Virus record (IMG/VR): IMGVR_UViG_3300026484_000600
Length of the DNA: 36,705 bases
Reading direction: 5' to 3' (one strand)
Source: a virus
Lineage: Duplodnaviria > Heunggongvirae > Uroviricota > Caudoviricetes
In this document: one piece after another, positions 2,392 through 17,630 of the stretch
Position numbering within the stretch: the stretch's first letter is position 1
How the letters are laid out: each line of letters opens with the position of its first letter
Position numbers and translations under genes: made by a program
The notes under the pieces: model-generated
The model's input: the letters and a program-made list of their open reading frames with translations, nothing else
What the model was told of the DNA's origin: nothing
Database searches by the model: none

Positions 2392-3519
2392 TTAATTGTA
2401 GTAACCACAACTTGGACATTCACTCATACCATCCAAATCATATCCACAACGACCACATACATCTTTATCCGATGTATCATTTTCAAGGATTTCATCTAAA
2501 ATAGTTTTATCTAAATCACCTGATTTGATCAGTCTAGCAATCATTTTACCAATGCCAGTTGTATCATTTCTTAAAGTTTTTCTACTAAATGATGCCATAG
2601 TTTCATTTGATAAACCTTTATCATTTAAGATTGCTCTGATCCAAGCGTCATCAATAGTACAATTATCTAAACCTTCTGTAATTTGTTTACCGATAGCTTT
2701 TGCTTCTTCAGCAACAGTATCAACAATACCATCAATTTTACCTGTAGTAACATCTGCTGTTTCAACTACTGATTGTTTTGATAATGTATTTTCAGCTTGA
2801 TAATCTTCAACCTCACCGATTACTTTATACTCACAGCAACGCATTTTGGTGTTGTTATAATCTTTTGGGATAGAAACCACATCTGAAGGATTTATCTCGC
2901 AGATAACAACTCTATCATTATTAGTTGAACCAAATGAAGGGAGATAATCATAACTACAAACATGTAAGCCAGTACTACAAGTTTGATTTGAGTCTTCATT
3001 TACCTGGTTACGAGGCATTGAAATTACTGCACCAATTGAGTTATCAATTGTACCTGTATAAATGTCTTTCCAATCATTTCTAATTTTTTTGTAAGCGAGA
3101 AATGTTCCATTTTCAGTAATTGGGATTGCTCCAGCTTCAAGAAAATCATAAAGTTCGTTTACAGCACGATATGAAGGGTTTTTCATAAGGTTTTCTAAAA
3201 ACTTAACCATATGACTAATATCAAAACCTTCTTTTGCCATTGAAATGATACGGTCTGTTAAAGTGTTATGAATTGGTTTACCATTATATAATACTTCTCC
3301 ATCTTTAATAGTAACTATATTTTCACCAATATCACTAGCATTGATTGCATTTTCAACTTCTTGGGCGATATTTACAAGTTCTGGCACTAAATCCCATTCT
3401 TGGTTTTTAAGAGCCTCTTTAATAGCTTCATAATTTTTATGGGCTGTATCAATGGGTTTCATTGTTCCCTCTAGCATTATACTGATTGTTCCATTACCGT
3501 TGATGATGTGTGGTAGCAT
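2392..3519 (-). CDS. rIIB: rIIB-like protein
   Basis: Typical rIIB motifs FLENLMKNPS, PITENGTFLAYKKI, MPRNQV, CSTGLHVCSYDY, INPSDVVSIPKDYNNTKMRCCEYKV; extra C-terminal CxxC...CxxC zinc ribbon. Confidence 0.9.
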   Translation of the reverse strand: MLPHIINGNGTISIMLEGTMKPIDTAHKNYEAIKEALKNQEWDLVPELVNIAQEVENAINASDIGENIVTIKDGEVLYNGKPIHNTLTDRIISMAKEGFDISHMVKFLENLMKNPSYRAVNELYDFLEAGAIPITENGTFLAYKKIRNDWKDIYTGTIDNSIGAVISMPRNQVNEDSNQTCSTGLHVCSYDYLPSFGSTNNDRVVICEINPSDVVSIPKDYNNTKMRCCEYKVIGEVEDYQAENTLSKQSVVETADVTTGKIDGIVDTVAEEAKAIGKQITEGLDNCTIDDAWIRAILNDKGLSNETMASFSRKTLRNDTTGIGKMIARLIKSGDLDKTILDEILENDTSDKDVCGRCGYDLDGMSECPSCGYYN

Positions 3520-3548
3520 GTTTTTCCTTTTTATTTTTAATATATGAT

Positions 3549-3577
3549 ATTATAACAAAATATATCTTAAATTTAAA
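3549..3577 (-). promoter_or_regulatory. extended -10 promoter for rIIB
   Basis: TGTTATAAT with weak -35 (TTTAAA) at 17-bp spacing. Confidence 0.5.
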
Positions 3578-3604
3578 TAAATAAAAATAAAAAAAGGAGT
3601 TGTA

Positions 3605-4303
3605 ATGACTTTAACAGAATTGAACATGGTTTCGGTACCTGCTTCACAGGCTATACTTTTAGAAATGATGGATGTACAAACATATTTATCTGGAATAAAA
3701 TATACTATTAATGAATTTAAAAATAGTGTAAAAGATGGAATAAAATCTTTTAAAGATGCAACAACAGCAATTATGTTAGCTGCAAAAAATAAAAAAGCTT
3801 TAGAATCCCTTAATGCTTCAATTAAACATCATATTGAAAATAAGCTTTATAAGCCTTTAGAAGAAAAATTATCAAAACTTTCAAATAGTGAAGCATTAAT
3901 TAAAATTATTAAAAACAATTTGTTTAGAAAACTTTATAATGTGAGTGGTTGGAATGGTGTTATTGCAAATTTAAGTTTCATAGCTTTATCAAATGAGATA
4001 ATATCAGCAATAAACAATAAGATAGATGAAAATACTAAAGGAAAAGTTACTGAAATTGGTGATGTTCTTATTGCAAGTGTTAAATCGGTTATCGCTGCTA
4101 TGTTTAAAAAAATAACTCATGTGCCTTTCAAAACTGCTGAAAAATTATTTAATGCTTTAATGAAATTTAAATCGTATGTAATTGATATAGTTTCATCAGC
4201 ATTAGATGATGTTATTAGAGGAAAAGAATTTTGGGTACGTTTACCTATTGTACAAAGCAAAGAACAGATGCTTGGTAAAGATGCATCATTTGTAACCGCA
4301 TAA
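3605..4303 (+). CDS. hypothetical helical protein (possibly late/virion-associated)
   Basis: 232 aa ORF, AAGGAG RBS, AATAAATA at 3576-3583, no TTGAC promoter. Confidence 0.75.
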   Translation: MTLTELNMVSVPASQAILLEMMDVQTYLSGIKYTINEFKNSVKDGIKSFKDATTAIMLAAKNKKALESLNASIKHHIENKLYKPLEEKLSKLSNSEALIKIIKNNLFRKLYNVSGWNGVIANLSFIALSNEIISAINNKIDENTKGKVTEIGDVLIASVKSVIAAMFKKITHVPFKTAEKLFNALMKFKSYVIDIVSSALDDVIRGKEFWVRLPIVQSKEQMLGKDASFVTA

Positions 4304-4426
4304 GTGTTTTTTCATGGAATAATTTTTAAATATATATTCTATAAAAATAAATAACTTAAAAATATTTTTTTAGTTTTTTGTAAAATATTAAGTATAAATA
4401 ATTTAAATTTTACAAAGGCTTTATGG

Positions 4427-5608
4427 TTGCAATCTAAATTTAAACATCTCTTTTGGAATATTACTAAATCTGAAATTGACTTAGTTAATGTACTTATTAA
4501 TATTGTTGAACGAGATGATGCGTTTGCTACAGATGGTATAGATCGCAACCAGTTGGGCTACGTAATAGATACTAATATGCATGAATTATCATCATCTCTT
4601 GGATTTTTAGAATTACGTATTGAAACTATTATGCAGACTCTTGAATCTCTTTCAAAATCAGTTGCTACAATATATCATGAAACTGACAACAGTATCCTTA
4701 TGTCTAAAGCTACATTTGTATATCAATATAATATAAGTAGTACTAATAATGATATTAATAAACGATTAAATATTATTGTGAATACTACTATGATTAAATT
4801 ATTGAGAAATAATTTACATTTATTTGAATTATTATATAGAATTGATAAGTATGGTTTAAAAAGCAAATATAGTAAAATAATTTATGAAAAATTCTATAAA
4901 AAAGATAGAACTGTTAGTACTTATTCAATAGAAGAATTAGTACGTATGATCGATTTTGGGTTAGAATATAAAGAACTTACTTGGTCGAGGCTAAATAGCA
5001 ATATTTTAAAGAGGGTTTCCAAAGAGTTAAATGAAAAAACAAATTTATATTTTGAGTATAATAAAATTAAGACAACTGTTGCTGAAACAAATAGAGTACA
5101 AACTGCTGAAATTAGAATAGTAACACATGTTGCTCCTGAAGTTGAAGAACCGAATACATATTTTAGTAAAGAATTTTTGATGAATAGAAAAGTTGCATAT
5201 TATATAGAAAGAGATATAAATCGCAAGTTTAAAGAAATAACGAGATTTAAAACGAAAGATGCTATAGAAAATCCTGAAGCATACAAACATAAATTACGGA
5301 AAGAAGCTTTTAAATTAAGAGATGAATACGAAGCTAAAGTATTATTACAAGAATGGTTAAATAATATTAAATACAACAATTATGAACACGAAGGTTTAGT
5401 TGTATTACAAGATTATAGTAAAGACAATCAATTCATAACGGTTAATAATAATTATAAACTTTATGATATAGAAAAAGGTGTTGAGGTATCCACTAGTGCC
5501 AGAGACACTAGGATGAAAATACAATCATTTATGAAGAAAGGACATTATGATATTGTAGAGACTACGGAATATATAAAGAATTGCTCTATTAGTTATACAA
5601 TGGGTTAA
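4427..5608 (+). CDS. divergent Rep_3 (RepB-like) replication initiator paralog A
   Basis: LKSKYSKIIYE and WSRLNSNILKRVSKELNEKTNL match Rep_3 WH2 motifs; TTG start; TATAAATA at 4393-4400; no adjacent iterons seen. Confidence 0.7.
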   Translation: MQSKFKHLFWNITKSEIDLVNVLINIVERDDAFATDGIDRNQLGYVIDTNMHELSSSLGFLELRIETIMQTLESLSKSVATIYHETDNSILMSKATFVYQYNISSTNNDINKRLNIIVNTTMIKLLRNNLHLFELLYRIDKYGLKSKYSKIIYEKFYKKDRTVSTYSIEELVRMIDFGLEYKELTWSRLNSNILKRVSKELNEKTNLYFEYNKIKTTVAETNRVQTAEIRIVTHVAPEVEEPNTYFSKEFLMNRKVAYYIERDINRKFKEITRFKTKDAIENPEAYKHKLRKEAFKLRDEYEAKVLLQEWLNNIKYNNYEHEGLVVLQDYSKDNQFITVNNNYKLYDIEKGVEVSTSARDTRMKIQSFMKKGHYDIVETTEYIKNCSISYTMG

Positions 5609-6454
5609 TTATTTCACAAAAAATAAATCTGCAATTTTCTTAGGTAGAATATCACCCAATGCCTCAACACTACCTTTTGGAATTGAAATAGTATCATGTG
5701 GTCCATGAGATTCTCTAGGATTGATTCTAACAAGCTGCGCATCTGGTATTTTTTCTTGTATAAATTCTCCCATATTTCTAATAGTTGGTATTGCTGTACC
5801 AGCACCAATTTCAATAACTACTATTTTTGTACCGTTTTTATCATATTTATGCATGAATGCGTTGAAACGTTTCTCTTGTTCAGAAGTTTCTTTTTGATTA
5901 AAATCAAAATCACCAAACATCATAATGTTTGGTCTAGCCATTGCACCGCATTTAGGGCATTTTGGAAGTTTACCTTTGATTTTAAAAGTATTAGGATCTA
6001 CATCAAACTTTGTATCTTCTGGGGCATCCCATGGTTCATCATTACAATCAGTACATTGAAATTTATTGATTCTTCCATGAACTTCATAAACTTTGTCTTT
6101 ATCAAACCCAGCTTTTTGAAATTGACCATCAACATTTGAGGTAACGATAAAGTAATCTTTTTTATCTTTAACTAATTCTTTCAAGGCTGCAAATCCAATA
6201 TGAGGTGTAGTGATTTTGTAAGTGTCAAATCTATGACCGTAAAAAGCCCAAGCAAGTTCAGGATGTTGTTTGAATTGTTTTGGGTTAGCAATTGACATAA
6301 AGTCTATATTTTTCTTTTTTAGTGGTGGATAAGCTTTCCACATACCTTCATTTCCACGAAAATCTGGCAGTCCAGAGTCAACCCCCATACCAGCACCTGC
6401 TGTAATAATTACTACTTCTGCATCTTCAATTTCTTTAATCACATTCATCTCCAT
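5609..6454 (-). CDS. Sir2-family NAD-dependent protein deacylase
   Basis: GAGMGVDSGLPDFRG, TSNVDGQFQKAG, catalytic EVHG, CTDC/CPKC zinc ligands, RPNIMMFGD. Confidence 0.92.
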   Translation of the reverse strand: MEMNVIKEIEDAEVVIITAGAGMGVDSGLPDFRGNEGMWKAYPPLKKKNIDFMSIANPKQFKQHPELAWAFYGHRFDTYKITTPHIGFAALKELVKDKKDYFIVTSNVDGQFQKAGFDKDKVYEVHGRINKFQCTDCNDEPWDAPEDTKFDVDPNTFKIKGKLPKCPKCGAMARPNIMMFGDFDFNQKETSEQEKRFNAFMHKYDKNGTKIVVIEIGAGTAIPTIRNMGEFIQEKIPDAQLVRINPRESHGPHDTISIPKGSVEALGDILPKKIADLFFVK

Positions 6455-6485
6455 AAAGTATTTTCCTTTTATTTATTATAAGTAT

Positions 6486-6514
6486 ATTATATCATAATAA
6501 AATAAATAAGTCAA
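6486..6514 (-). promoter_or_regulatory. sigma70-type early promoter for Sir2 gene
   Basis: TTGACT-N17-TATAAT. Confidence 0.85.
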
Positions 6515-6527
6515 GCAAAATAAAGCT

Positions 6528-6567
6528 CCTCCTCTTTTAATATTCTTTTATATTCTTTAGGCAAAAT
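6528..6567 (-). repeat. partial third copy of the Rep-cassette distal box
   Basis: Reverse complement attttgcctaaagaatataaaagaatattaaaagaggagg closely matches part of the 84-bp boxes at 14363 and 16439. Confidence 0.85.
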
Positions 6568-6623
6568 GAAGAAGATATTTTGGGTTATTAATAAGGCGGT
6601 TTTATTTAATGCTTTAAATAAAT

Positions 6624-6735
6624 TCATTTTATACTTAGGGCGGTTTCATTTTAAATTTGGACTAAATGAAGGTTTTTTCATTTTGTACTTAGAATCAATT
6701 TTATACTTAGGTTAAATAAATCATTTTTTATTTAG
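6624..6735 (+). repeat. iteron array of Rep paralog B
   Basis: tcattttRtacttag-like 15-mers at 6624, 6646, 6678, 6696 (weaker at 6721); exact inverted copy of the 6678 unit at 6788-6802 over the ATG. Confidence 0.8.
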
Positions 6736-6798
6736 AAAAAATTAAAAAAATAATCATTTAAACAATAAATAAAATTAAAAATAAGGTCTAAGTACAAA

Positions 6799-7992
6799 AT
6801 GAAAAAAATAAAAACTGAGATTATGGAAATTAATAAACCTAGTGAATTAACACAAACAATGTTTTTTAAGAATGATGATAGTAATGCTATAGCATCATTA
6901 ACGGCTACACAGATGGATATGTTGAATTTAATTTTTTATAAAAGCAAAGAATATTTTATAAAAGAAAAGGTTGAAATATTAGAATTTATACCATTCGAAA
7001 TAGATTTAAAGATGATTTCAGAGACATTTGACAAATATAATACTGGAGCATATACAGATCTAATTAAGCAATTAGTTGAATTATCTGATATTAAAGTAGT
7101 TATAAATGTATTAGGTAAGAATAAAGATATGAATACTACCTTTACTAGGTTTATTCATAAAATAACAGTATCAAAACATAAAAATAATAATAGGAAAAAA
7201 GTAAGATTGATATTAGATGGAGATATATGTAAAATGATATTTAATGTAAAAAAATTATTTAGTAAATTTTACTTAAAAATACAATTTTCAATGAAATCAA
7301 AATATTCAAAATTACTATATGAACTTCTTAAAGATTATGAAGGGATTTTCACTAAAATTATTGATTATGAACTATTAGTAGGTTTATTGAATGTTGATTA
7401 TGAAAAAACAAACAATGGTAAATGGGCGTTATTCAATCAAAATATTCTTAAAAAAGCAGTTAAAGAAATTAATGAAAAATCAGATATTAAAGTTAGTTAT
7501 GAACCTATCAAAGAAAGACCTGATGGTGGTAGATTACAAGTAACTAAAATTAAATTTATGATGGAGAAACAAGATGAAAACAGATTGAAGGAATTAGGCA
7601 TTTTAGATCAAGAACCAGAATTATCGATAGAAGAGCAAATTCATCAAAATAAACTTAAAAATAAGTCAAAGGCTAAAATGGTTAAATTGGTTAAAAATGG
7701 ATACGAAATTAAAGATGAAGAATCTTGGATTAATACAGATATAAGGAAAAATGAAGAATTATATACTGCTCAATATAAATTAGATGATTATATTGATGCT
7801 TTAGATGATATGGACTTAGACAGCAAGCAAGAACTGCTTTCATCATTAGCTACTTATTTAAAAACTGATGATCCTATTGTATTAATTGACGGATATAGCA
7901 TTAAAGATCTTTCAGGTAATTTTTTAACCACCTCAGCAATCGAAACACGAAAAGTTATTTTAGATTTTCAAGAGGTGTCGGGGTCAAATTGA
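6799..7992 (+). CDS. Rep_3 (RepB-like) replication initiator paralog B
   Basis: INKPSEL, SLTATQMDML, MKSKYSKLLYELLKDY, FNQNILKKAVKEINEKSDIKVSY. Confidence 0.9.
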   Translation: MKKIKTEIMEINKPSELTQTMFFKNDDSNAIASLTATQMDMLNLIFYKSKEYFIKEKVEILEFIPFEIDLKMISETFDKYNTGAYTDLIKQLVELSDIKVVINVLGKNKDMNTTFTRFIHKITVSKHKNNNRKKVRLILDGDICKMIFNVKKLFSKFYLKIQFSMKSKYSKLLYELLKDYEGIFTKIIDYELLVGLLNVDYEKTNNGKWALFNQNILKKAVKEINEKSDIKVSYEPIKERPDGGRLQVTKIKFMMEKQDENRLKELGILDQEPELSIEEQIHQNKLKNKSKAKMVKLVKNGYEIKDEESWINTDIRKNEELYTAQYKLDDYIDALDDMDLDSKQELLSSLATYLKTDDPIVLIDGYSIKDLSGNFLTTSAIETRKVILDFQEVSGSN

Positions 7993-8010
7993 TAATGAAT
8001 ATTATTATCA
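7990..8010. promoter_or_regulatory. Fur-box-like dyad
   Basis: GATAATGAATATTATTATC (7991-8009) matches 16/19 to GATAATGATAATCATTATC. Confidence 0.35.
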
Positions 8011-8024
8011 AAATTAATTAGTAG

Positions 8025-8088
8025 TCTTAATTCAATCTTAAAATTATTTGATAATGATTTCAATAATCATTATCAATTGGCGACTCCC
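8025..8088 (+). repeat. about 65-bp intergenic repeat, copy 1
   Basis: tcttaa-N5-tcttaaaatt then exact 21-mer taatcattatcaattggcgac (8064-8084); second copy at 10870-10932; 12-bp perfect inverted repeat 8048-8076. Confidence 0.8.
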
Positions 8089-8150
8089 ATTTTTTTAAAA
8101 TAAAGTTAATTTTTTGAATAAATAGATTAAAATCAGATAAAGGAACGAAA

Positions 8151-10166
8151 ATGGCAAGAATAGTAGAATTGCTTGAGAAAGAAAATTATACTCCTGTAGA
8201 CGGTACAAAATTTAAAAAATATTCAGAACCTGTTAATATTTTAAGGTTGATTCTTACATGTCAACTGAGAGATTATGAGTCCCTACCTACGGGGCCTAAA
8301 GTGAAAAAAGTATTTGAAGAAAGTGAAAACTTAAAAGAAATAACTACTAGATACAATAGTTTAAGAAAAATTTTAAAGACTAAAAAATCTATAGCTGCAT
8401 TAAAACCTCATAAGAAAAAATTATATGATTTATTATTTGAAATCTTATTACGTTATGCAAAGATTAATAGTTATAAACCATCAGTTTTAGGGACTGCTTT
8501 TGCAAAAACTAAACATGGTGAACTAAATGATTATCAAAAAAAAGTTATAATTAAGTTTGCAAAAACATTATTACATGAAAAGCCAGGTCTAAGAGGTAGA
8601 GATACATTAGAATTAACAAGAATGCTTATTTTTGAAGATGGTATAAAACCTCAACAAATTGAACAAAATAATGAAGAAGTTATACCTGCCGAAGATACTC
8701 AAAATGATTTAGAACCAGATTTAAATTCTAAATTACGTTCTATGAGTACTGAAGAAATTGATATTATTAGTAAAACTGTAAAGGAACGATTTTCTAAGAA
8801 CAATGATATATTAGATTCAAAGATGTCTGAAGTAGAAACATTAACTCATGAGTTAGATATAGATTTAGTAGATATTGAAGAATATTCAAAAATTAAATTT
8901 AAAGAAGCAAAAATTTCTCCAGAAGTAGAAGCTAAGGCTGATATTGTTGAAAATCAATTGCATACTGCGATTAATGAAATTGATTTAAGTAAATATCCAG
9001 AGAAAAAAGCTAAGAAAATTAAGAAAGTAGCAAGTGTTATGGTGTCTGATATTCTTGTAAATTTTGCAAAGTTTATTCCTAATGAATTAAATAGAGAATT
9101 TTTAACTACTAGTAAAATGATTGGTAATCAACTTGTTGTTAGTTTTCAAGATATTCAAGAAGAAACAAATTTTACTAGAACTTTTACTATTAGTGATAAT
9201 GGAGATATTGAGAAAGTACAACATACTTTATTTGAAGTTCCACCATCAGCTCAAAAAACTGGTTTATCTAAATCGGCAATTGCTGATATGTTAAAATTGT
9301 ATAAAGCTGCAGGTATTAAAAAAGTTGAATTACATGCAAATATAGGTTTGGGTGGTTATGTATGGTTGCGATATGGATTCAAACCTAATGAAGATCAAAT
9401 ATCAAAGATAAAAGATTCTTTTACTGATATTTATAATTGTGTGAAATATGGTTTAAAACCTGGTTATACAGTAGGTGTTACTCCAGATAATGTTTTAGAT
9501 TCAATTATAAAACATTTTGATAATCCAGTAATTACTCTTACTCTACAAACTATTAAGAAAAATTATGATATGCAGAAAGCCAAATTGGATAACATGCTAT
9601 TAAATGATTTTGGATGGGATAAATATACTGAAGCCCCTATTAAATTCAATTATACTTTTAATGAGATAATTGCAGAAACATTTAAGAATATTGGAACTGA
9701 ATTAGCAAAACAGTTTAAAATTAATGTAGATACTTTGCATGAAGATATAGCATTATCTAAAAAAGATATAAAACTTAAAGTTCCAACACTTAAATTGGTT
9801 ACAAATAATAAATTGGCAGATGAAATGATTAGAGAATATGCATTATCCAAAGCTACAAGTTCTGCTGAAGCACAAATTGCAAGAACTATTAAATCAAAAA
9901 AAATAATCGATAAATATTTTGGTAGTAGGATTTTCAAAATGTCAGAAGATGTTAAATTTACGATTTCAGTTAAGAAATTTTTAACAATGACTGGAATTAG
10001 TATTGAGACTGTACAAGGTCAAATTTCAGTCTTACCTGGAAATCCTGCAGATTTCGCAGCAGGAATTGATATGATGCCTGGAGCTATGGAGTGGAAAGGC
10101 TATTTAGATTTAACAGATGAAAAACAGTTTAAAACTGCAATGAAATATGCTACAGCTACTAAATAG
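8151..10166 (+). CDS. large protein with internal GNAT-like domain
   Basis: LFEVPPSAQKTGLSK, GIKKVELHAN, GGYVWLRYGF resemble GNAT motifs A/B; AATAAATA at 8117-8124. Confidence 0.55.
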   Translation: MARIVELLEKENYTPVDGTKFKKYSEPVNILRLILTCQLRDYESLPTGPKVKKVFEESENLKEITTRYNSLRKILKTKKSIAALKPHKKKLYDLLFEILLRYAKINSYKPSVLGTAFAKTKHGELNDYQKKVIIKFAKTLLHEKPGLRGRDTLELTRMLIFEDGIKPQQIEQNNEEVIPAEDTQNDLEPDLNSKLRSMSTEEIDIISKTVKERFSKNNDILDSKMSEVETLTHELDIDLVDIEEYSKIKFKEAKISPEVEAKADIVENQLHTAINEIDLSKYPEKKAKKIKKVASVMVSDILVNFAKFIPNELNREFLTTSKMIGNQLVVSFQDIQEETNFTRTFTISDNGDIEKVQHTLFEVPPSAQKTGLSKSAIADMLKLYKAAGIKKVELHANIGLGGYVWLRYGFKPNEDQISKIKDSFTDIYNCVKYGLKPGYTVGVTPDNVLDSIIKHFDNPVITLTLQTIKKNYDMQKAKLDNMLLNDFGWDKYTEAPIKFNYTFNEIIAETFKNIGTELAKQFKINVDTLHEDIALSKKDIKLKVPTLKLVTNNKLADEMIREYALSKATSSAEAQIARTIKSKKIIDKYFGSRIFKMSEDVKFTISVKKFLTMTGISIETVQGQISVLPGNPADFAAGIDMMPGAMEWKGYLDLTDEKQFKTAMKYATATK

Positions 10167-10167
10167 C

Positions 10168-10196
10168 TTGATTTATTTAGTAAATTATGGTATAAT
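10168..10196 (+). promoter_or_regulatory. sigma70-type early promoter
   Basis: TTGATT-N17-TATAAT with TG extension. Confidence 0.8.
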
Positions 10197-10222
10197 ATAT
10201 TAATTATAATGGAGAAATTATT

Positions 10223-10438
10223 ATGGAAATGAATGGAAAAGGACCTTTTACAAAAGTAGGAGAAAGTGTAACTGATGCGGGTTTATTCGACCATGTTTTT
10301 GATGGTACTGATGATGCACACGATGAACAATTAAAAGCTGAAAAACTTTTAGCAGCTATAAAAACAGAAATGCTCAGACGTTCTATGATTAAAGAAAGTT
10401 TTGAGGATACAGTTAAAATGCTTTTAGAGGATTTTTAA
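10223..10438 (+). CDS. hypothetical protein
   Basis: 71 aa, GGAG RBS, upstream promoter. Confidence 0.75.
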   Translation: MEMNGKGPFTKVGESVTDAGLFDHVFDGTDDAHDEQLKAEKLLAAIKTEMLRRSMIKESFEDTVKMLLEDF

Positions 10439-10439
10439 T

Positions 10440-10706
10440 TTGAAAAATGTTAAAGAAGAAGATGTTGAAAAACTACTCACTAGATTTTATAAAGATGCTG
10501 TTATCAAAAAATCTAGAGAGGACTTTATAATTTTAAAATATAAGCATGGGGACTTTGATAAACTTATACCGAATGATATTTTTTTTAATGTTGTTCATTT
10601 TTTACCAAACATAAAATTCCGTCAAAAACCTTTTGTTATGGGTGTATCTTACAATATTAGAACGAAAATATATGAAATAACGATAATAAACCCTAAGATT
10701 TATTAA
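10440..10706 (+). CDS. hypothetical protein
   Basis: 88 aa, TTG start abutting previous stop, GAGG RBS. Confidence 0.65.
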   Translation: MKNVKEEDVEKLLTRFYKDAVIKKSREDFIILKYKHGDFDKLIPNDIFFNVVHFLPNIKFRQKPFVMGVSYNIRTKIYEITIINPKIY

Positions 10707-10796
10707 AAAATTAATAAAAAAAAATTTTCTTACATAAATAAAATTAATATAAATCAAAACAAAGAAAAAGTTCGTTATGGTTTTTATTATTTCACC

Positions 10797-10823
10797 GGAA
10801 TTTCTTTTTTAAAGGGAAATTCC
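10797..10823. terminator. hairpin, possible terminator
   Basis: ggaatttc/gaaattcc 8-bp stem after the 10223-10706 unit. Confidence 0.45.
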
Positions 10824-10869
10824 ACCTTTTATTAAATCTTCCTTAAATTTAAAACTTATACATAATTTA

Positions 10870-10932
10870 TCTTAAAGTCATCTTAAAATTTGTTTAAATT
10901 GATTAATGTAATCATTATCAATTGGCGACCCC
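10870..10932 (+). repeat. about 65-bp intergenic repeat, copy 2
   Basis: tcttaa-N5-tcttaaaatt and exact taatcattatcaattggcgac (10909-10929). Confidence 0.8.
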
Positions 10933-10951
10933 TAATTCATCAAAAATAAAC

Positions 10952-10980
10952 TTGACATTCCATCTAATTTATGTTATGAT
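10952..10980 (+). promoter_or_regulatory. sigma70-type early promoter
   Basis: TTGACA-N17-TATGAT; variant of the 24-bp core. Confidence 0.8.
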
Positions 10981-11008
10981 ATGATATAATTAAAGAAAAG
11001 GTATAATT

Positions 11009-11752
11009 ATGATTACGTATACTTGTGAATCTGTTGGGATGCATGGGAATTGTGGGGATGGATGTCCTCTTTTTGCTGATGGATTGTGTGAGATACCATT
11101 TGAAATTGATAATATTGAATTATATCCTGATGAATATGATGAAATCATAGAAAGCTATAATGCTGTTGCTCGAGCTAAAAAGGAACGAGATATGCAGATA
11201 GAACAATTACAACAAAGAAAACCCAATTTTAAAATTTCAAAAGCGTTTGTATGTAATATGTTAGTAGATTATTATCAAAATAAAGACAATAGTTTAAAAA
11301 ATCCTATGAAGATGTTTATAGATAATGATGCTTTTGATGAAGAAATCATTAATGGTATAACAGACAAATTAAATAAAGTAAGTAATTACGAGCGATTTGC
11401 GTTCGATTTACTTTTAAACGGTTTAGAGAAGCATATTATACCTTCATTTAAAAATCATTATGGATTCTTTGGAGAAATTCTTTCTGATATGCATACAAAT
11501 TCTTCACTATCAACTCTTAAAGAACTTCAAAATAATTTTTATGAAGCTGATTTAAATATGAATTTTTTTAATAACTTAGGTTATACTGTTGACTCTATAT
11601 TTTTAGCTATAGATTCTGATGGTTTAAGTAGAGTGCAACTTAGAATTTTAAAGCATGAAGATTATGATATAACTACAAAAATAAAAATTGCAGAGATTAG
11701 TGGAGATAATAGTTTTTTACCGCAACAATTACAAGATATGTTTATATTTTAG
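11009..11752 (+). CDS. hypothetical protein with Cys-rich N-terminus
   Basis: 247 aa; CESVGMHGNCGDGCPLFADGLC; C-terminal FLPQQLQDMFIF. Confidence 0.8.
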   Translation: MITYTCESVGMHGNCGDGCPLFADGLCEIPFEIDNIELYPDEYDEIIESYNAVARAKKERDMQIEQLQQRKPNFKISKAFVCNMLVDYYQNKDNSLKNPMKMFIDNDAFDEEIINGITDKLNKVSNYERFAFDLLLNGLEKHIIPSFKNHYGFFGEILSDMHTNSSLSTLKELQNNFYEADLNMNFFNNLGYTVDSIFLAIDSDGLSRVQLRILKHEDYDITTKIKIAEISGDNSFLPQQLQDMFIF

Positions 11753-11761
11753 CAAGATAAC

Positions 11762-11790
11762 TTGACTTTTCCTTCTAATTATGTTATAAT
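11762..11790 (+). promoter_or_regulatory. sigma70-type early promoter with 24-bp core
   Basis: TTGACT-N17-TATAAT; exact core 11780-11803. Confidence 0.9.
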
Positions 11791-11817
11791 ATGGCATAAT
11801 TAAAGAAAAGGATACTT

Positions 11818-12030
11818 ATGAAAGAGTATAACGAAATTCCAGAAAGTTTAAAGTTAATGTTAGAAGAAGCTGTTAGTACAGACCCTTATGGTTTATCACC
11901 AAAAACACTTTATAAAAACATTGCATCTTCACTATTATTTACACCGGCTGATAAAGTTAGTAAGATTATGGAAGTATCATATTCAGTTGTAGTTATGATT
12001 GCAGATGAAAATGAAATAGGTCTTTCGTAA
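11818..12030 (+). CDS. hypothetical protein
   Basis: 70 aa, AAGGA RBS after promoter. Confidence 0.8.
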   Translation: MKEYNEIPESLKLMLEEAVSTDPYGLSPKTLYKNIASSLLFTPADKVSKIMEVSYSVVVMIADENEIGLS

Positions 12031-12122
12031 TGGTTTGGTGGGTAATAGCCTTTTTGTTCTTAGTATATGATCAATTAGCATTTGCATTTTTATTTGCGAT
12101 GATAGCTTTAAATAGGAGTTAA
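12030..12122 (+). CDS. 30-aa hydrophobic membrane micropeptide (not in ORF track)
   Basis: MVWWVIAFLFLVYDQLAFAFLFAMIALNRS; ATG overlaps upstream TAA (TAATG), stop abuts next gene. Confidence 0.6.
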   Translation: MVWWVIAFLFLVYDQLAFAFLFAMIALNRS

Positions 12123-12123
12123 G

Positions 12124-12372
12124 ATGAATATGGTTACAAGTAAGATACCTGCAGATGTTTGTAGTGTATTGATGGATTTGGCACAAGGTTTTGATGGTAT
12201 AGTTAATATTGATTATACTGATATTGCAGAGTGGAGTGATAAAGCTTCAAAAGAAGAAATTGATGAATTAAGAAGTCTTATAGCAGATTTAGCTGATTTG
12301 GATTATGCTTTTGATGAAGATGAAGATGCTCGAGAGATAGCAAATAAAATAACTACGATGGTAAAAGGTTAG
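12124..12372 (+). CDS. acidic hypothetical protein
   Basis: 82 aa, AGGAG RBS. Confidence 0.8.
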   Translation: MNMVTSKIPADVCSVLMDLAQGFDGIVNIDYTDIAEWSDKASKEEIDELRSLIADLADLDYAFDEDEDAREIANKITTMVKG

Positions 12373-12374
12373 AT

Positions 12375-12953
12375 ATGAAAAAAGTAGAGATAAAAGAGAT
12401 TGTAGAAAATAAGGAACCAAAGTTTGTAAAAACAGAACTCGTTAAAGCTGAACGAGATGGTGTCCCATTTTTATGGGAGCGTATCAAGTCTCATGATTCC
12501 GTACATGTACTCATAGATAATATGGAAGCTGGTGAAATAATTGTTGTTGAACAAGTAAGAGTTCCTGTTTTATGCAATGATGCTTCTCAAGATGGTAGAG
12601 TAACAGAAGCATGTGCTGGTTTAGTTGATAAAGATAAGGGTATAGCAGAAATTGCTAGAGAAGAAATCTTAGAGGAGTGTGGATTTGATGTGCCATTAGA
12701 CGGTATTAAATTTCTAAAAACATTAAAAAGTTCAGTAGGTACTGCTGGTACAGAATCACATGCATTTATTGCAGAAGTAACAAATGATATGAAAGTTTCT
12801 GATGGTGGAGGACTAGCAGAGGAAGATATAAATGTGGTTCGTATTAAATATGAAGATATCAATGATTATTTCTTTAATTCAGATATTCATACTGATGCTA
12901 TTACTATGTTTTTAATTACATTCTGGATGCTTTATCATACTTCTATGGATTAG
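12375..12953 (+). CDS. Nudix hydrolase, ADP-ribose/NDP-sugar pyrophosphatase-like (NudF/NudK type)
   Basis: HDSVHVL, EQVRVPV, Nudix box EACAGLVDKDKGIAEIAREEILEECGF, DGGGLAEEDINVV. Confidence 0.88.
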   Translation: MKKVEIKEIVENKEPKFVKTELVKAERDGVPFLWERIKSHDSVHVLIDNMEAGEIIVVEQVRVPVLCNDASQDGRVTEACAGLVDKDKGIAEIAREEILEECGFDVPLDGIKFLKTLKSSVGTAGTESHAFIAEVTNDMKVSDGGGLAEEDINVVRIKYEDINDYFFNSDIHTDAITMFLITFWMLYHTSMD

Positions 12954-14148
12954 ATTTTAACTCTTCCAAAACTAAATATGTTTCATAAGCATTACTTGTA
13001 AGTGGTGCTTGTGTATCATCAAAAACAAAACCTAATTTATAATCGGTCATACCTACTAAATCACCATATTTTATTGATAATGCATCATTGAATTTTGATA
13101 AATCTGTATTATCTAAAACTTCCTTCGATTCTTCTATTAAATCTTGTAGTTCAACATATTCATCTGTAATAGAAGATATAGTTTTTTTAATCCATGCTTC
13201 TTCATTTTTGATTTCCTGAAATTGTTTTGCTTTCTCTAATCTTTGTTCTGCTATTGATTTCTTTTTATTATATTTGATTTGCTCTTCTATCGATAATTCT
13301 GGTTCTTGATTATCTATCAAATCACATTTTTGTTTATGAAATTCAACGGTCATAGTAGTTTTACCATTTTTCTTTTTACCATATATTTTATCTATATAAA
13401 TATCTGTATTTGCATTTATTTCTTTAATTGCTTTATTGAGGTATGCGCTTTTTAATTTACTTGGTGTGTCGGTATTAGATTTGGTTCTATCTATACCTAG
13501 TACGACAATCCATTCATCAAAGTTTTTAGTTAATGGTTTATTTAGATTTTCATAATCCTTACATATCTCATATAAAATTTTAGAGTAAGTTAATTTTAAT
13601 TTTGTTTGTATTTTTAAATAAAGTTTTGCAAATGGTTTAGTTTTGTGAATCCAACCTAATAAAATTTCCGGTTCTAATTGAAAATCTGCCTTCGTACTGT
13701 TTGTAACTCTTGTATAATTTCTCAGAAGTGACATTGTTTTGACAGCATGAATGTCTCCAAGCAATTCATCTTGTTTAAAAATACCTACTTTAACAGATAC
13801 AGCTCTTAATGCGTCTAAAATAGATGATAACTCAGTTTTATTCTGTCGACTTTTATATTTGCCTATAAAATTGGCTAACTTTTTTAAATCTAATTCAAAA
13901 TGTTGAATTTCTAAAAATTCAAATAATTCATCTTCATTTTTAAATGATGCAAGAGTTTTTTCTACATCCATTTTTTTATGGATTTGTTCTCTTGCTAAAT
14001 AGCACATATAATTCATAGCATCATGTTGTGTTGGTGTTAAGGTGTAATGTTCATAACCTTTAATTCGCCCACGTTTTATTATCGGTGTTTTATACTCACT
14101 TGTAATCAATGCACTAGGTTTATGAATTTCAAATATATCCTGTCTCAT
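12943..14148 (-). CDS. Rep_3 (RepB-like) replication initiator paralog C
   Basis: EIHKPSAL, TLTPTQHDAM, LKLTYSKILYEICKDY, LKSAYLNKAIKEINANTDI; start moved to 14148 because GGAG RBS lies at 14154-14157. Confidence 0.88.
   Translation of the reverse strand: MRQDIFEIHKPSALITSEYKTPIIKRGRIKGYEHYTLTPTQHDAMNYMCYLAREQIHKKMDVEKTLASFKNEDELFEFLEIQHFELDLKKLANFIGKYKSRQNKTELSSILDALRAVSVKVGIFKQDELLGDIHAVKTMSLLRNYTRVTNSTKADFQLEPEILLGWIHKTKPFAKLYLKIQTKLKLTYSKILYEICKDYENLNKPLTKNFDEWIVVLGIDRTKSNTDTPSKLKSAYLNKAIKEINANTDIYIDKIYGKKKNGKTTMTVEFHKQKCDLIDNQEPELSIEEQIKYNKKKSIAEQRLEKAKQFQEIKNEEAWIKKTISSITDEYVELQDLIEESKEVLDNTDLSKFNDALSIKYGDLVGMTDYKLGFVFDDTQAPLTSNAYETYLVLEELKSNP
13158..13290. repeat. 133-bp direct repeat shared by rep C and rep D 3' regions
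   Basis: One mismatch versus 15260-15392; a further ~49-bp shared block at 13033-13081 / 15135-15183. Confidence 0.9.
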
Positions 14149-14258
14149 AATCACTCCATTTTATCATGTTCTGTTGTTACCTTATTTATATATATTTTAC
14201 AATATAAAATATTAACATTTTTTTATATACTTTTAGTGTCATAATATATAAAGACATT

Positions 14259-14350
14259 GTAACAATAGAATATGAAGGTAACAATAGAATATGAAGAAAC
14301 CGTTTTAATGTAATAGTAGAATGTGTAAAATGTAATATTGAAATGTGAAC
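14259..14350. repeat. iteron array of Rep paralog C
   Basis: gtaacaatagaatatgaag exact at 14259 and 14278, degenerate at 14310 and 14332; inverted copy (14/16) at 14165-14180 next to the RBS. Confidence 0.8.
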
Positions 14351-14362
14351 TTTTATTCCAAG

Positions 14363-14446
14363 CCATCTTTTAACCCCTTATAAACACCGGCAAAAAACGT
14401 TTGTATTTTGCCTAAAGAATAGATAAAGAATATTAAAAGAAGAGGA
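14363..14446. repeat. 84-bp perfect direct repeat, copy 1 (Rep cassette distal box)
   Basis: Identical to 16439-16522; contains ggcaaaa...ttttgcc inverted repeat. Confidence 0.95.
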
Positions 14447-14475
14447 GAGATAGACTAAGTGTTCACTAAAATGAA

Positions 14476-15045
14476 TCAAGAGCTTATTATTAAATTTTCT
14501 AAATAAATTTTTGTGGATTTATGAACCGCCAATAGTAGAAGATTATTAGATTGCCATACATGTAATTTATCTAATTTTAAATCGTAATTGGATTCTATAA
14601 TATGATTATTTTTTATTATATGGATAGATATATCTTTATCTTTAGACAAAGATAACCATAAATATTTTGTTCCTGTATAATGTTTGTAATCTGATAAAAT
14701 TGATAATTTATTTTTTAATATAGCTTTATAGAATTTAGTTGTGATACCTTGTTTCCTATATTTATTACATGTATCTATGCTCTCTTCCTGTTGTACAAGA
14801 CCTTTAAAATTTTTTATTTGATATTTATCGGTTTCAAGAATTGATACAATACAGTTGGTAACTGTATCAATCAAATAAAATTTTTGTTTGGTTCCCATGA
14901 TAATTATACGAATGTCGAATGGACTTTCTATGGGGATACCATTATATTCAATTAAGTTGTGTTTTGTAGAACAAAGTTCTATATCGTATGATTGCCTATC
15001 ACCATTCTTCAATTCAGGCATTTCTATTAATGAATTTATTGTCAT
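14476..15045 (-). CDS. GNAT-family acetyltransferase-like protein
   Basis: KYRKQGITTKFYKAIL (motif A-like R/QxxG), ILSDYKHYTGTKYLWLSL; start overlaps rep D stop (ATGA). Confidence 0.55.
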   Translation of the reverse strand: MTINSLIEMPELKNGDRQSYDIELCSTKHNLIEYNGIPIESPFDIRIIIMGTKQKFYLIDTVTNCIVSILETDKYQIKNFKGLVQQEESIDTCNKYRKQGITTKFYKAILKNKLSILSDYKHYTGTKYLWLSLSKDKDISIHIIKNNHIIESNYDLKLDKLHVWQSNNLLLLAVHKSTKIYLENLIISS

Positions 15046-16220
15046 TTTGATTCTCCATCTAATGTCTGTAAAATATTTAATGTTTCTTTTGCATTATTAG
15101 TGATAGATGGTTTAGATTCATCAAAAATATAAATTAATTTATAATCGGTCATACCTACTAAGTCACCATATTTTATTGATAATTTCTCTGCATAATCTTT
15201 GATATTGATATTATCTATTTGTTCTTTAGCAGATTCTATTTGCTCTTGTTCATCTAGAAATTCATCTGTAATAGAAGATATGGTTTTTTTAATCCATGCT
15301 TCTTCATTTTTGATTTCCTGAAATTGTTTTGCTTTCTCTAATCTTTGTTCTGCTATTGATTTCTTTTTATTATATTTGATTTGCTCTTCTATTGGAAGCT
15401 CTGGTTCTAAATCTAATAATCCTAATTTTTGTAACCGAGAATCAGGTTGTTTCTCCATCATAAATTTAATTTTAGTTACTTGTAATCTACCACCATCAGG
15501 TCTTTCTTTGATAGGTTCATAACTAACTTTAATATCTGATTTTTCATTAATTTCTTTAACTGCTTTTTTGAGAATATTTTGATTGAATATAGACCATATT
15601 CTTTGTGAAGCTTCACTAACATTGATTAAATCCATTAAAACATTCAGTTCAAATTGTTTTATATTTAAACCTTCATAATCTTTTAGTAATTCATATAATA
15701 GCTTTGAATATTTTGACTTCATTGAAAATTGAATAGTTAAAAACATTTTTGAAAAATATTTCTTAACATCTATAAATCTTTTTATGATTGTATTTGAAAT
15801 CGCCAATTTGATTCTTTTCTTTTCAGTTTTTTTATGTTTAGATACTCTTATTTCTTGAATGAATCTAGTAATAATCATTTCGTCTATATCTTTATTTTTA
15901 CCAATACTATTAATTATAATTTTTATATCGGATAATGAATCTAACTGTTCGATTATTTCACTATATTGGTTATTATTATATTTGTGGATCATATTATTGA
16001 AGTCATTTAATGTAAATTCAAAAAGTGTTGAGGGTTGTGTGTCGTCTATTTTTAATTTATATTTACCAATTTCTTTTCGTATCTTATAAAACATAACATT
16101 TATAAGATCTATTTGTAATGCCGACATTTTATAAATATTTAGTTCTTTTTTTATTTGTTGAGTAAAAACAACTTGAGTTAATTCACTTGGCTTATTAAGT
16201 TCTAATTTTTCAATATTCAT
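15042..16220 (-). CDS. Rep_3 (RepB-like) replication initiator paralog D
   Basis: LNKPSEL, MSALQIDLIN, MKSKYSKLLYELLKDY, FNQNILKKAVKEINEKSDIKVSY. Confidence 0.9.
   Translation of the reverse strand: MNIEKLELNKPSELTQVVFTQQIKKELNIYKMSALQIDLINVMFYKIRKEIGKYKLKIDDTQPSTLFEFTLNDFNNMIHKYNNNQYSEIIEQLDSLSDIKIIINSIGKNKDIDEMIITRFIQEIRVSKHKKTEKKRIKLAISNTIIKRFIDVKKYFSKMFLTIQFSMKSKYSKLLYELLKDYEGLNIKQFELNVLMDLINVSEASQRIWSIFNQNILKKAVKEINEKSDIKVSYEPIKERPDGGRLQVTKIKFMMEKQPDSRLQKLGLLDLEPELPIEEQIKYNKKKSIAEQRLEKAKQFQEIKNEEAWIKKTISSITDEFLDEQEQIESAKEQIDNINIKDYAEKLSIKYGDLVGMTDYKLIYIFDESKPSITNNAKETLNILQTLDGESK
15447..15588. repeat. 142-bp inverted repeat shared by rep D and rep B
   Basis: Reverse complement of 7431-7572 with one mismatch. 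Confidence 0.9.
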
Positions 16221-16325
16221 TTGTGGTATCCTTTTTATAAATTATACATTTTTATTTATATATAAAATTGAATAAAAATCAATATTTATGTTAATTTAAT
16301 ATTGAAAATATAATATATAAATGTC

Positions 16326-16428
16326 CACAATCTAATATTGATTTTTAGTTGGTAACACGATCTAATATTGATTTGATACTCTATACCCACAATCTAATAT
16401 TGGTTTTAACACAATCCAATATTGATTT
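16326..16428. repeat. iteron array of Rep paralog D
   Basis: cacRatcYaatattgRttt 19-mers at 16326, 16356, 16388, 16410; inverted copy (13/16) at 16210-16225 over the ATG. Confidence 0.88.
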
Positions 16429-16438
16429 TTATTTTCAT

Positions 16439-16522
16439 CCATCTTTTAACCCCTTATAAACACCGGCAAAAAACGTTTGTATTTTGCCTAAAGAATAGAT
16501 AAAGAATATTAAAAGAAGAGGA
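16439..16522. repeat. 84-bp perfect direct repeat, copy 2
   Basis: Identical to 14363-14446, 2,076 bp apart. Confidence 0.95.
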
Positions 16523-16523
16523 C

Positions 16524-16552
16524 TTGACTTTCTCTTCGAGATATGTTATAAT
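16524..16552 (+). promoter_or_regulatory. sigma70-type early promoter
   Basis: TTGACT-N17-TATAAT, TATG extension. Confidence 0.85.
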
Positions 16553-16578
16553 ATAGAAAATTAATACAGAGGTGAAAA

Positions 16579-16812
16579 ATGAATATTGGGATTTATGATT
16601 CAAATAATCGAGAAATTAAAATTGGAGATGAAATAGAGGTTGTGAACTGGTTCAAAGAAACAATCAAATCAAAAGTTAAAATTGAAATGATTACGGTTAC
16701 AGGAGATGATCATAATTATGTTGATGTTATTGGTATTGAGACATCAGACTTATGGCAATATGAAAATACGGGCAAAGGCTTAAAAGCTATTAATGTTACA
16801 GTAGTAAGTTAA
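16579..16812 (+). CDS. small phage protein, YopX-like fragment
   Basis: DSNNREIKIGDEIEV resembles the YopX DKNGKEIYEGDIV motif. Confidence 0.55.
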   Translation: MNIGIYDSNNREIKIGDEIEVVNWFKETIKSKVKIEMITVTGDDHNYVDVIGIETSDLWQYENTGKGLKAINVTVVS

Positions 16813-16868
16813 AATAAAATTAAGCAAAACCAGAGTATAATATAATATAATTAATAAAAGGAAAAAAT

Positions 16869-17315
16869 ATGAAACCTATTGAAATTAAACCGGAAATTAG
16901 AGTAATGAGTCATGAAGAATTAACAGCACGTTTAGAATATCTATCTTTTGAATTTTGTATAAATGCTGACTTTCAAAAAATTGATGCTGTTAATAAGTTA
17001 GTAGCTCGTTTAGAAGAATATTCTATGGAAGCATTAATGAGAGTTATGGAGGGGAAATTAGGTTATAGACCGCTACAAAATAAAATCTATGAAAAGGTTG
17101 AAGGATTATTTGATAATCAAGATAGTTACAATATAAACCGTATGTTCAGCTCTATGAGACGTACTCATTATTTTGGTGTTATTGATCCTGAAGATAAAAA
17201 GTACATTGAGTGGTTTAAAAACCGTGTTAAATATGGCGTTAAATCATTGATTAGAGAGGTCCATACAGTTTCATATGTAACTGTACCTAAATTCGAAGAA
17301 TTAGTTTATGAGTAA
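16869..17315 (+). CDS. hypothetical protein
   Basis: 148 aa, AAGGA RBS. Confidence 0.8.
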   Translation: MKPIEIKPEIRVMSHEELTARLEYLSFEFCINADFQKIDAVNKLVARLEEYSMEALMRVMEGKLGYRPLQNKIYEKVEGLFDNQDSYNINRMFSSMRRTHYFGVIDPEDKKYIEWFKNRVKYGVKSLIREVHTVSYVTVPKFEELVYE

Positions 17316-17628
17316 AAAACTATACGAGCGAAAATCAGACGGTACTTTTGAAGAAATTGGTGTAGAATTTACTGGCTTTCCTTCAAATGGTCTATGGTTA
17401 GTTGAGGATGGAAAACAAAACTGCATTATTCCTATGGGGAAGAAAACCTTAAAACCTGATAAAGTATTACTAAGTTATATGGTATTTCAAGATGAATTAC
17501 AAGATTATATTAGTACTGCATGGAGTGATACAAGTCTTTCAGTTAGAGATATTTCAAAAATTGCTTGTGAGTTTTTTGCTTTAAAAGCAGGTGGAATGAA
17601 AATAGGTGAGGAAATTATTGAAAATTAA
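17308..17628 (+). CDS. hypothetical protein
   Basis: 106 aa, overlaps upstream stop. Confidence 0.75.
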   Translation: MSKKLYERKSDGTFEEIGVEFTGFPSNGLWLVEDGKQNCIIPMGKKTLKPDKVLLSYMVFQDELQDYISTAWSDTSLSVRDISKIACEFFALKAGGMKIGEEIIEN

Positions 17629-17630
17629 AC

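Follow-up and report, generated by a model that had tools for sequence, protein, structure and literature searches.

In an uncultured T4-like phage from hydrothermal vents, four genes of the plasmid Rep_3 initiator family are found close together in the early region, and three of them are, judged by the organization of their sequence, complete plasmid-style origin cassettes. The DNA considered here, referred to as the window, is a stretch of 36,705 nt (IMG/VR virus record IMGVR_UViG_3300026484_000600) from a phage contig of 221,509 bp. The cassettes of rep2, rep3 and rep4 share one order of parts, in which a bipartite box is followed by private iterons, by an AT-rich promoter with an inverted iteron copy (only partial in rep4) and then by the rep gene. 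The fourth gene, rep1, is a Rep_3 paralog without iterons. With moderate confidence, the cassettes can be read as exchangeable origin modules that belong to the phage and are shuffled by homologous recombination at their boxes. Rep_3 initiators and iteron origins are textbook subjects, and phages with plasmid-type replicons exist. What appears to be undescribed in the literature searched is a metagenome-only branch of Rep_3 in which a C-terminal domain is added and a bipartite box is conserved, the presence of up to four such Reps in T4-like jumbo phages, and the exchange of cassettes at the population level with modular swapping of specificity. The original prediction, made from the sequence alone, knew of no described system with such a layout, and none was found.

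All four open reading frames (ORFs) encode genuine Rep_3 proteins of the RepE/pi type. Paralogs had been predicted at 4427 and 6799 on the plus strand and at 12943 and 15042 on the minus strand, and the ORF listing and the Pfam gathering scores used to check them agree with this, as does hhalign. The genes are rep1 (4427-5608, plus strand, 393 aa), rep2 (6799-7992, plus strand, 397 aa), rep3 (12943-14154, minus strand, 403 aa as the ORF was called) and rep4 (15042-16220, minus strand, 392 aa). For rep3, the likelier start is the ATG at 14148, which gives 401 aa (12943-14148). The second winged helix (WH2; Rep3_C, PF21205) scored above the gathering cut-off of 21.1 bits in all four proteins (28.4-42.1 bits). 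The first winged helix (WH1; Rep3_N, PF01051) passed its cut-off of 22.4 bits in the initiators rep2 (46.3 bits), rep3 (25.6 bits) and rep4 (52.5 bits). WH1 of rep1 was not detected with PF01051, which does match some rep1 orthologs. When rep1 was compared with the iteron-type family by hhalign, the homology covered its full length (373 columns, including WH1 and the C-terminal part), with a probability of 100 and an E value of 8e-55. The rep1 protein is without the N-terminal KPSEL segment and carries an extra C-terminal tail.

The tandem winged-helix fold, the lack of which would have counted against the same prediction, is seen in the AlphaFold (AF2) models made for rep4 and rep1, both of which match RepE. 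The rep4 model, with a predicted local distance difference test (pLDDT) value of 88, consists of a tandem winged helix and a helical C-terminal extension. It fits the monomeric RepE54-iteron complex with a Foldseek E value of 1e-11, a template modeling (TM) score of 0.80-0.85 and a root-mean-square deviation of about 3 Å, and pi (2nra) is also among its matches in the PDB. The rep1 model (pLDDT 88, predicted TM score 0.87) matches RepE in the PDB with an E value of 3e-6 and is closer to the dimeric repressor form of RepE (TM 0.60) than to the monomer (0.38-0.46), which is a weak hint that rep1 may act as a regulator. The identity of the Reps to RepE is only about 15%; a profile of 74 family members matches pi and RepE in the PDB by sequence, with E values of 7e-10 to 4e-9. 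Beyond WH1-WH2, an extra C-terminal domain of about 130 aa (rep4 residues about 262-392) is conserved in the family. The PDB matches span the WH part only, and neither Atlas features nor structure gave a convincing match for this domain.

The individual cassettes are self-contained, about 1.4-2.1 kb in size, and contain two to five iterons that are 19-32 bp apart. Upstream of rep2, four 17-nt copies are located at 6623-6711 on the plus strand, three of them within 2 mismatches and one (6645) at 4, and a weak fifth copy is found at 6720. An inverted copy with 2 mismatches (6787-6803, minus strand) overlaps the rep2 start codon and is a putative operator for autorepression. The rep3 cassette has two perfect tandem 19-mers (14259-14296, minus strand) with a degenerate copy near 14328, and a degenerate inverted iteron with 4 mismatches (14162-14180, plus strand) just before the ribosome-binding site (RBS) and start of the gene. 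The rep4 cassette has four 18-nt cores (16326-16427, minus strand) with a spacing of 22, 32 and 30 bp; in its promoter region, only a partial inverted half-site was seen by eye. The repeat counts of rep2, rep3 and rep4 were reached by no shuffle (0/100 for rep2 and rep4), and each iteron set occurs beside its own rep and nowhere else in the window. Upstream of rep1 and of its ortholog in a close relative (contig L001), the repeats were not beyond chance. In two contigs from more distant relatives, the region upstream of a Rep holds dense direct and inverted arrays of AAAAGTGTTAATTG... (L153, 16203-16538; L154, 17113-17590), far beyond the three or four iterons seen elsewhere.

This layout resembles the origins of mini-F (RepE and ori2) and R6K (pi and gamma-ori), with which the phage Reps have the tandem winged-helix fold (PF01051 and PF21205) in common. 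In these plasmids, too, direct repeats of about 17-22 bp lie upstream of rep on a single face of the helix, the promoter or start has an inverted copy, and an AT-rich element is found on the far side of the iterons. The phage Reps differ from the plasmid proteins by the added C-terminal domain of about 130 aa and by the N-terminal KPSEL segment. No DnaA box was recognized, and up to four copies are found in a large T4-like phage and not in a plasmid.

The box is located on the far side of the iterons from rep. In the rep2 cassette (6517-6595, plus strand), it comprises motif A, with two TATTCTTTA copies, and motif B (GTTATTAATAAG at 6584), and it is partial compared with the 84-bp box of the other two cassettes. 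The 84-bp box contains motif A, a hairpin and a motif B-like part, and its two copies (14363-14446 and 16439-16522, both on the minus strand) are identical and bracket a unit of 2,076 bp (14363-16438). It is 94% identical to the box of L001/L009. Motif A, which consists of CTTTAATATTCTTTA, a gap of 0-5 nt and TATTCTTTAGG, does not vary among the 14 cassettes that were aligned, which come from different contigs and in which the identity of the Reps goes down to about 45% and the iterons are unrelated. In most of these 14 cassettes, a motif B close to CCTTATTAATAAGG follows about 23 nt past motif A. The same cassette architecture is present in eight contigs of the family (L001, L004, L007, L008, L013, L014, L109 and L152). 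When metagenomes were scanned with an extended motif, a family Rep was found downstream in 9/9 assessable matches. In eight of them, the Rep starts about 240-300 nt past the element, and the remaining match is the distal of two boxes on L109. Judging from these matches, the extended motif, unlike the short motif A pattern, is specific to rep cassettes.

The bare motif A was rejected as a general probe, as it also matches one HNH-linked site and a repeat family that is unrelated to the boxes and confined to a single sample series. The repeat in question is about 50 nt long, shares the TATTCTTTA pattern and occurs in dozens of contigs of that series (Ga01573xx), among them L035, L037, L043, L045 and L047-L049, with no Rep nearby. 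The palindrome of motif B was not accepted as universal either; it is exact in a subset of the cassettes only, and chance matches are not rare in AT-rich DNA. On contig L109 (2806-3600), two boxes are located 493 nt apart. The first has its own direct and inverted repeats, has no rep and looks like an orphan origin relic. Downstream of the second are four perfect iterons and a Rep.

By analogy with plasmid origins, motif A may be a shared unwinding or factor-binding element. In ori2 of mini-F, an AT-rich unwinding element is located beyond the iterons. The order of box, iterons, operator and rep matches that origin, and RepE holds the double-stranded DNA of an iteron and the single-stranded DNA of the DNA unwinding element (DUE) together (PMC10602881, PMC4081077; PDB 8aan, 8ac8); motif A is read in this way for both reasons. 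The rep1 protein was considered as a binder of the box and is unlikely to be one, because the record of contig L007 (G002, 48% complete) has the box and no rep1 ortholog was found there; of the five related IMG/VR records, a true rep1 ortholog is present in G001 only.

The same elements could be taken as the marks of DNA-binding regulators that start no replication and serve as repressors, insulators or roadblocks in the organization of early transcription. Inverted iterons overlap the starts of rep2 and rep3, and the rep1 model best resembles the dimeric repressor RepE, which is weak evidence. Furthermore, the boxes adjoin divergent early promoters. Nevertheless, direct repeats on one helical face combined with a conserved AT-rich box are the layout of an origin and not of an operator, and repression does not need a conserved extra C-terminal domain. 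For the Reps to be regulators only is, in our view, very improbable.

A chimera or misassembly as the source of the arrangement was ruled out with two sequencing runs. X1, the run in which the region is best represented, is a hydrothermal vent metagenome and maybe the source sample. Its Logan contigs tile positions 2300-17656 with zero mismatches at a depth of 53-58 and break at repeats only. A single Logan contig of 7.5 kb joins the rIIB gene, an ORF for a protein of 232 aa (ORF232), rep1, a Sir2-family gene and rep2 without a mismatch. The run X2 comes from a different study and carries the same layout and linkage at roughly 90-95% identity.

Close relatives of the phage differ from it by whole cassettes. 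The relative represented by L001 (record G001), which is about 88% identical, has only rep1 and one iteron-type rep. Three segments of the window are absent from L001, namely 3591-4348 with ORF232, 6516-7902 with the rep2 cassette, and 13333-15081. The absence of rep2 starts at the box (6516) and stops 90 nt before the stop codon, and the survival of this 3' relic argues for a loss of rep2 in L001. The single iteron-type rep of L001 consists of the DNA-binding half and the iterons of rep4 joined to the C-terminal domain of rep3 (87% nucleotide identity; tree support 100/100), with a breakpoint at 13332/13333, at about codon 272 of rep3, which is the junction between WH2 and the C-terminal domain. 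In X2, one contig joins 14362 to 16439 and skips exactly 2,076 bp, and 84 letters fit on either side. In this deletion variant, rep3 is present, and rep4 and the neighboring gene for an acetyltransferase-like protein (GNAT-like, ORF189) are missing. In the rep2 allele of X2, the iterons and roughly the first 217 codons are different, and the box and 3' end are unchanged. Short repeats were found at the borders of indels between close relatives, both for the rep2 segment at 6516 and for the 2,076-bp deletion in X2.

The phylogeny of the protein halves is in line with such exchanges. In the WH1-WH2 tree, each of the four paralogs belongs to a separate clade and is nearer to other sequences than to its fellow paralogs. 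The tree of the C-terminal domain conflicts strongly with this topology. Between rep4 and rep2, 76% is shared in WH2 and only 23% in the C-terminal part, whereas between rep4 and rep3, 66% is shared in the C-terminal part and 23-32% in the WH domains. Comparison of the relatives shows that homologous recombination adds, removes and swaps cassettes, both at the boxes and, within rep, at the junction between WH2 and the C-terminal domain. It also shows that the iterons travel together with the DNA-binding half as a single unit of specificity and that the family-specific C-terminal domain shuffles separately.

The same mosaic logic is known from the O protein and ori-lambda of phage lambda. In lambda O, the N-terminal half and the iterons co-vary, and the C-terminal half, which makes the contact with the helicase loader, is exchangeable between phages. 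In contrast to the phage Reps described here, lambda O belongs to an unrelated protein family, the lambda iterons are part of the O gene, and each genome has a single origin. In the hyperplastic regions of T4-type phages, cassettes are shuffled at PeSL repeats, which can also give rise to mini-circles (PMC2839356, PMC4122927). The two systems are alike in that border repeats mediate insertion, deletion and replacement, and in X2 a deletion is located exactly between two copies of the box. The 84-bp box holds a 7-bp hairpin and adjoins the early promoter of a divergent gene, and it is not itself the promoter unit of the phage. The two systems differ in that the box belongs to the rep cassettes and not to a general early-promoter unit and is conserved together with the Rep across distant phages.

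The exchange of specificities also fits a reading in which the Reps and iterons are tools of competition against co-infecting relatives or resident replicons and act by titration, handcuffing or private replication in an arms race. Specificity modules made up of iterons and the WH half are exchanged whole, each of the four paralogs belongs to a different clade, and several related variants share vent samples. Handcuffing and incompatibility are established for iteron Reps. We regard this reading as quite improbable. It gives no prediction for the conserved box, and in the window, each iteron set is found beside its own rep only. The form proposed in the original prediction, an incompatibility arsenal against host plasmids, gained no support, since there are no relatives on PLSDB plasmids and none confirmed in a genome scan (described below).

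The Rep genes are under strong constraint. In the comparison with L001, the ratio of nonsynonymous to synonymous substitution rates (dN/dS) of rep1 was 0.024, the lowest of nine genes, and that of the WH half of rep4 was 0.05, so that purifying selection on the Reps is as strong as, or stronger than, that on rIIA, rIIB and Sir2. Additionally, all genome versions seen with the rIIB-rep1-Sir2 region (6/6) retain at least one iteron-type Rep gene. Both results weigh against the proposal that the cassettes are selfish mini-replicons that parasitize the phage genome in the manner of homing-endonuclease genes or embedded satellites and bring the phage no benefit. According to this proposal, recombination at the boxes spreads the cassettes between co-infecting phages, and small circles such as the 2,076-bp unit may over-replicate on the phage replisome and become packaged. 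A family of selfish rep-ori cassettes that colonize the phage had been among the original suggestions, and part of it is supported. Cassettes are present or absent between phages that are about 88% identical, with clean boundaries and conserved ends. Their surroundings are unrelated, and their orientation is often opposite to that of the local genes. They run from their own promoters, and the direct 84-bp repeats would free a self-contained circle. T4-type phages are documented to form mini-circles at PeSL repeats (PMC2839356), and some homologs are fused to a T5orf172 domain, which is GIY-YIG-like. The supposed lack of benefit fares worse in view of dN/dS values of 0.02-0.05 and the retention in all six versions. 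The likeness to homing-endonuclease genes is also limited, as Pfam found no nuclease domain in the four Reps of the window and T5orf172 occurs only in some homologs. In X1, the depth of the 2,076-bp unit is not above that of its flanks, which is weak evidence. On balance, purely selfish cassettes seem rather unlikely.

A precedent for a plasmid-type initiator that lives off a phage replisome is RepA (RepA_N) of PLE, the Vibrio cholerae satellite of phage ICP1, the C-terminal domain of which has been suggested as a recruiter (PMC7145576). As with the phage Reps, this protein is an iteron-binding initiator with a separate C-terminal domain, and it replicates only with the machinery of the lytic phage. 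The fold family is a different one, and PLE is a chromosomal satellite that harms its helper phage and is not located inside a phage genome.

The family was seen in metagenomes only. There are 128 homologs of rep4 and a separate set of 43 full-length homologs of rep1, all from metagenomes, and the long contigs of the family (224, 262, 290, 306 and 496 kb) are phage-like. A T4-like background is indicated by rIIA and rIIB in the window and by a gp23-type capsid gene (PF07068) in 3/5 related records (G004, G005 and G006); PF07068 was not found in the closest record (G001, 85% complete). Neither cultured phages (INPHARED) nor PLSDB plasmids gave a nucleotide or protein match. A scan of species genomes with the family alignment gave 25 pattern hits, none of which was confirmed; it used a single peptide pattern and is weak evidence of absence. 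The related IMG/VR records have one or two Rep copies, L152 has three in a window-like arrangement, and four is the highest number seen. The synteny of rIIB (minus), rep1 (plus) and Sir2 (minus) is kept down to about 50% rep1 identity and is found in L001, L152, L153 and L154. Each of the rep1-type contigs L152-L154 has at least one iteron-type Rep a few kilobases further on.

Some homologs have an N-terminal T5orf172/MUG113 domain fused to the Rep WH1-WH2 and C-terminal domains. The domain was detected in P0022, P0024 and P0059, and P0052, P0061 and P0114 are also homologs of the fusion type. The P0022 fusion is found at L005 (383-2125), L006/L068 and L087; in the L005 cassette, motif A is kept, and one iteron-like site is present without an iteron array. 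Such a fusion may be a site-specific nuclease or nicking variant.

The distribution of the family bears on the possibility that the phage persists in slow-growing vent hosts as a low-copy episome, in a carrier state or as a phage-plasmid, with several Reps suited to different hosts. Iterons of the RepE type with autorepression are built for copy-number control, and phage-plasmids of the P1 type use a structurally related RepA. In IMG/VR, one 12-kb record (G003) carries the label of a provirus. On the other hand, neither a ParA partition gene (PF01656) nor a tyrosine integrase (PF00589) was found in the five related records, which are 48-87% complete, although the controls were detected in 14/14 cases, and the rII and nrd genes mark a T4-like type of genome. 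The suggestion of a multi-replicon phage-plasmid is left without support by this result, and persistence in any such form can be given only a small probability. The accompanying premise, that Rep_3 proteins are normally present as one per replicon, was too strong, as multi-replicon plasmids such as IncF are well known.

The reading of the cassettes as phage-owned, exchangeable origins is favored by the private iterons and operators, the invariant box, the conserved extra domain, the co-replacement of iterons and DNA-binding half, and the strong constraint. In the proposed mechanism, Rep monomers would bind their own iterons through WH1 and WH2, and the box would serve as a common element for unwinding or factor binding. 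The C-terminal domain would recruit a common replication machinery of the phage or the host, and the inverted iteron copy would provide autorepression. Given its lack of iterons and its vertical conservation, rep1 could have a constant place in the system, as a regulator or a partner. In this way, the phage would gain several origins defined by proteins, much as T4 has concurrent origins. T4 fires at least five origins, and its oriE has 12-nt iterons of unexplained role together with RepEA/RepEB (PMC3016281), which makes several origin modules in one T4-like genome plausible. The earlier statement that T4-like phages replicate without Rep_3 proteins was accordingly too strong (PMC3016281). The parallel lies in a T4-type phage with several concurrent origins, which are putative ones in the window, and in the plasmid-like iterons of one T4 origin. 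The difference is that no initiator has been tied to the T4 iterons and the best-studied origins work through R-loops, whereas here each array has a cognate Rep_3 protein.

There are also several points that weigh against phage-owned origins. The depth is flat across the region (53-58), with no sign of origin firing. We know of no T4-type replisome that is loaded by Rep_3 proteins, and the C-terminal domain has no PDB or Atlas match that points to a partner. Close relatives manage with one iteron cassette, so that additional copies are not needed, as would be expected of selfish DNA, and the retention in six genome versions comes from a small sample. The cassettes are located amid accessory genes of the hyperplastic region, and the rep genes do not use the early promoter unit of the phage and have their own promoters instead. 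In several cassettes, the box is placed just upstream of divergent early promoters, and a role in transcription is therefore possible.

A wider version of phage-owned origins can be proposed only tentatively and is, as a whole, doubtful. In this version, a T4-like clade would have replaced or supplemented its R-loop origins with interchangeable Rep origins, which would have diversified under competition during co-infection. Cassettes would also exit as self-replicating mini-circles that ride in capsids, for example as the 2,076-bp unit with rep4 and the GNAT-like gene, and would thus be replicons nested within a virus.

The significance of these cassettes lies in the choice of origins in T4-type phages, which is only partly understood; the role of the oriE iterons of T4 was never settled. 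The window offers a natural case of T4-like iteron arrays with a cognate initiator, in several copies and specificities, with differences of whole cassettes between relatives. The co-replaced iterons and DNA-binding half, the separately shuffled effector domain and the invariant box provide a map of the functions of the parts. Because the cassettes are small and self-contained, the function of the origin, its specificity and the partner of the C-terminal domain are directly testable. They may be compact replicons that run on a phage replisome, and they extend the Rep_3 family beyond plasmids to a metagenome-only branch on phage-like long contigs.

The surroundings of the Rep genes are those of a phage, and the flanking rII and nrd genes that had been predicted were placed by PHROG and annotation. 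The variable early region is flanked on the left by the rIIB homolog (2392-3519, minus strand; PHROG 609 RIIB, E 1.6e-80) and on the right by the rIIA homolog (19500-21626, plus strand; PHROG 612, E 1e-124), which shows 27.5-35.5% identity in the listed tblastn matches among cultured phages. An NrdB-like gene (32027-33067) and NrdD (33957-35819, minus strand) follow. The expected interleaving with phage early cassettes is also seen. A unit of early promoter, 5' untranslated region and RBS (TTGAC, a spacer and TATGTTATAATATGGCATAATTAAAGAAAAGG) precedes early genes in at least 12 highly conserved copies, at 897-931, 10969-11001, 11760-11814, 17628-17683, 19440-19493, 21663-21696, 23367-23402, 25028-25060, 25638-25661, 26157-26190, 27869-27893 and 28679-28702. 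These copies form a PeSL-like repeat family.

Between rep4 and rIIA, an AAA+ ATPase gene (18346-19434) has a weak DnaC-like helicase-loader match (PHROG 2376) and is conserved in L001; its product is a possible candidate for a replication partner. A search for the gp59 helicase loader in relatives gave no match, and its controls were silent too. Between rep1 and rep2, the Sir2-family gene (5609-6454, minus strand; Pfam SIR2 E 9e-25, PHROG 2162) is located. A Sir2 gene adjoins Reps repeatedly; in four contigs its neighbor is rep1, and in L008 (8992-9765) it is a Rep of the iteron type. Inside the 2,076-bp unit, ORF189 (14476-15045, minus strand) has no Pfam match; its Atlas features (0.96-0.97) and TM scores (0.65-0.75) relate it to phage GNAT-like clusters, which is a lead only. 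A link of Sir2 and ORF189 to the Rep system through acetylation and deacetylation is pure speculation.

In the 224-kb record G001, nearly all genes are on one strand except for a block of 28 kb (positions of about 183.6 kb and 212.2 kb), which corresponds to the early region of the window. Transcription in G001 diverges mainly from the gap between rep1 and rIIB, where the cumulative GC skew also has a local minimum. As a locator of the origin, the GC skew of G001 was rejected, because it follows gene orientation. The ORF232 segment (3591-4348; ORF 3605-4303, 232 aa) has no family match and, with its absence from L001, is a further indel of the hyperplastic region. A 76-nt repeat, 75% identical between its two copies, is located at 8025-8100 after rep2 and at 10870-10945 after an ORF of 88 aa. 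It holds a long inverted repeat and is likely a terminator or stem-loop element of the hyperplastic region.

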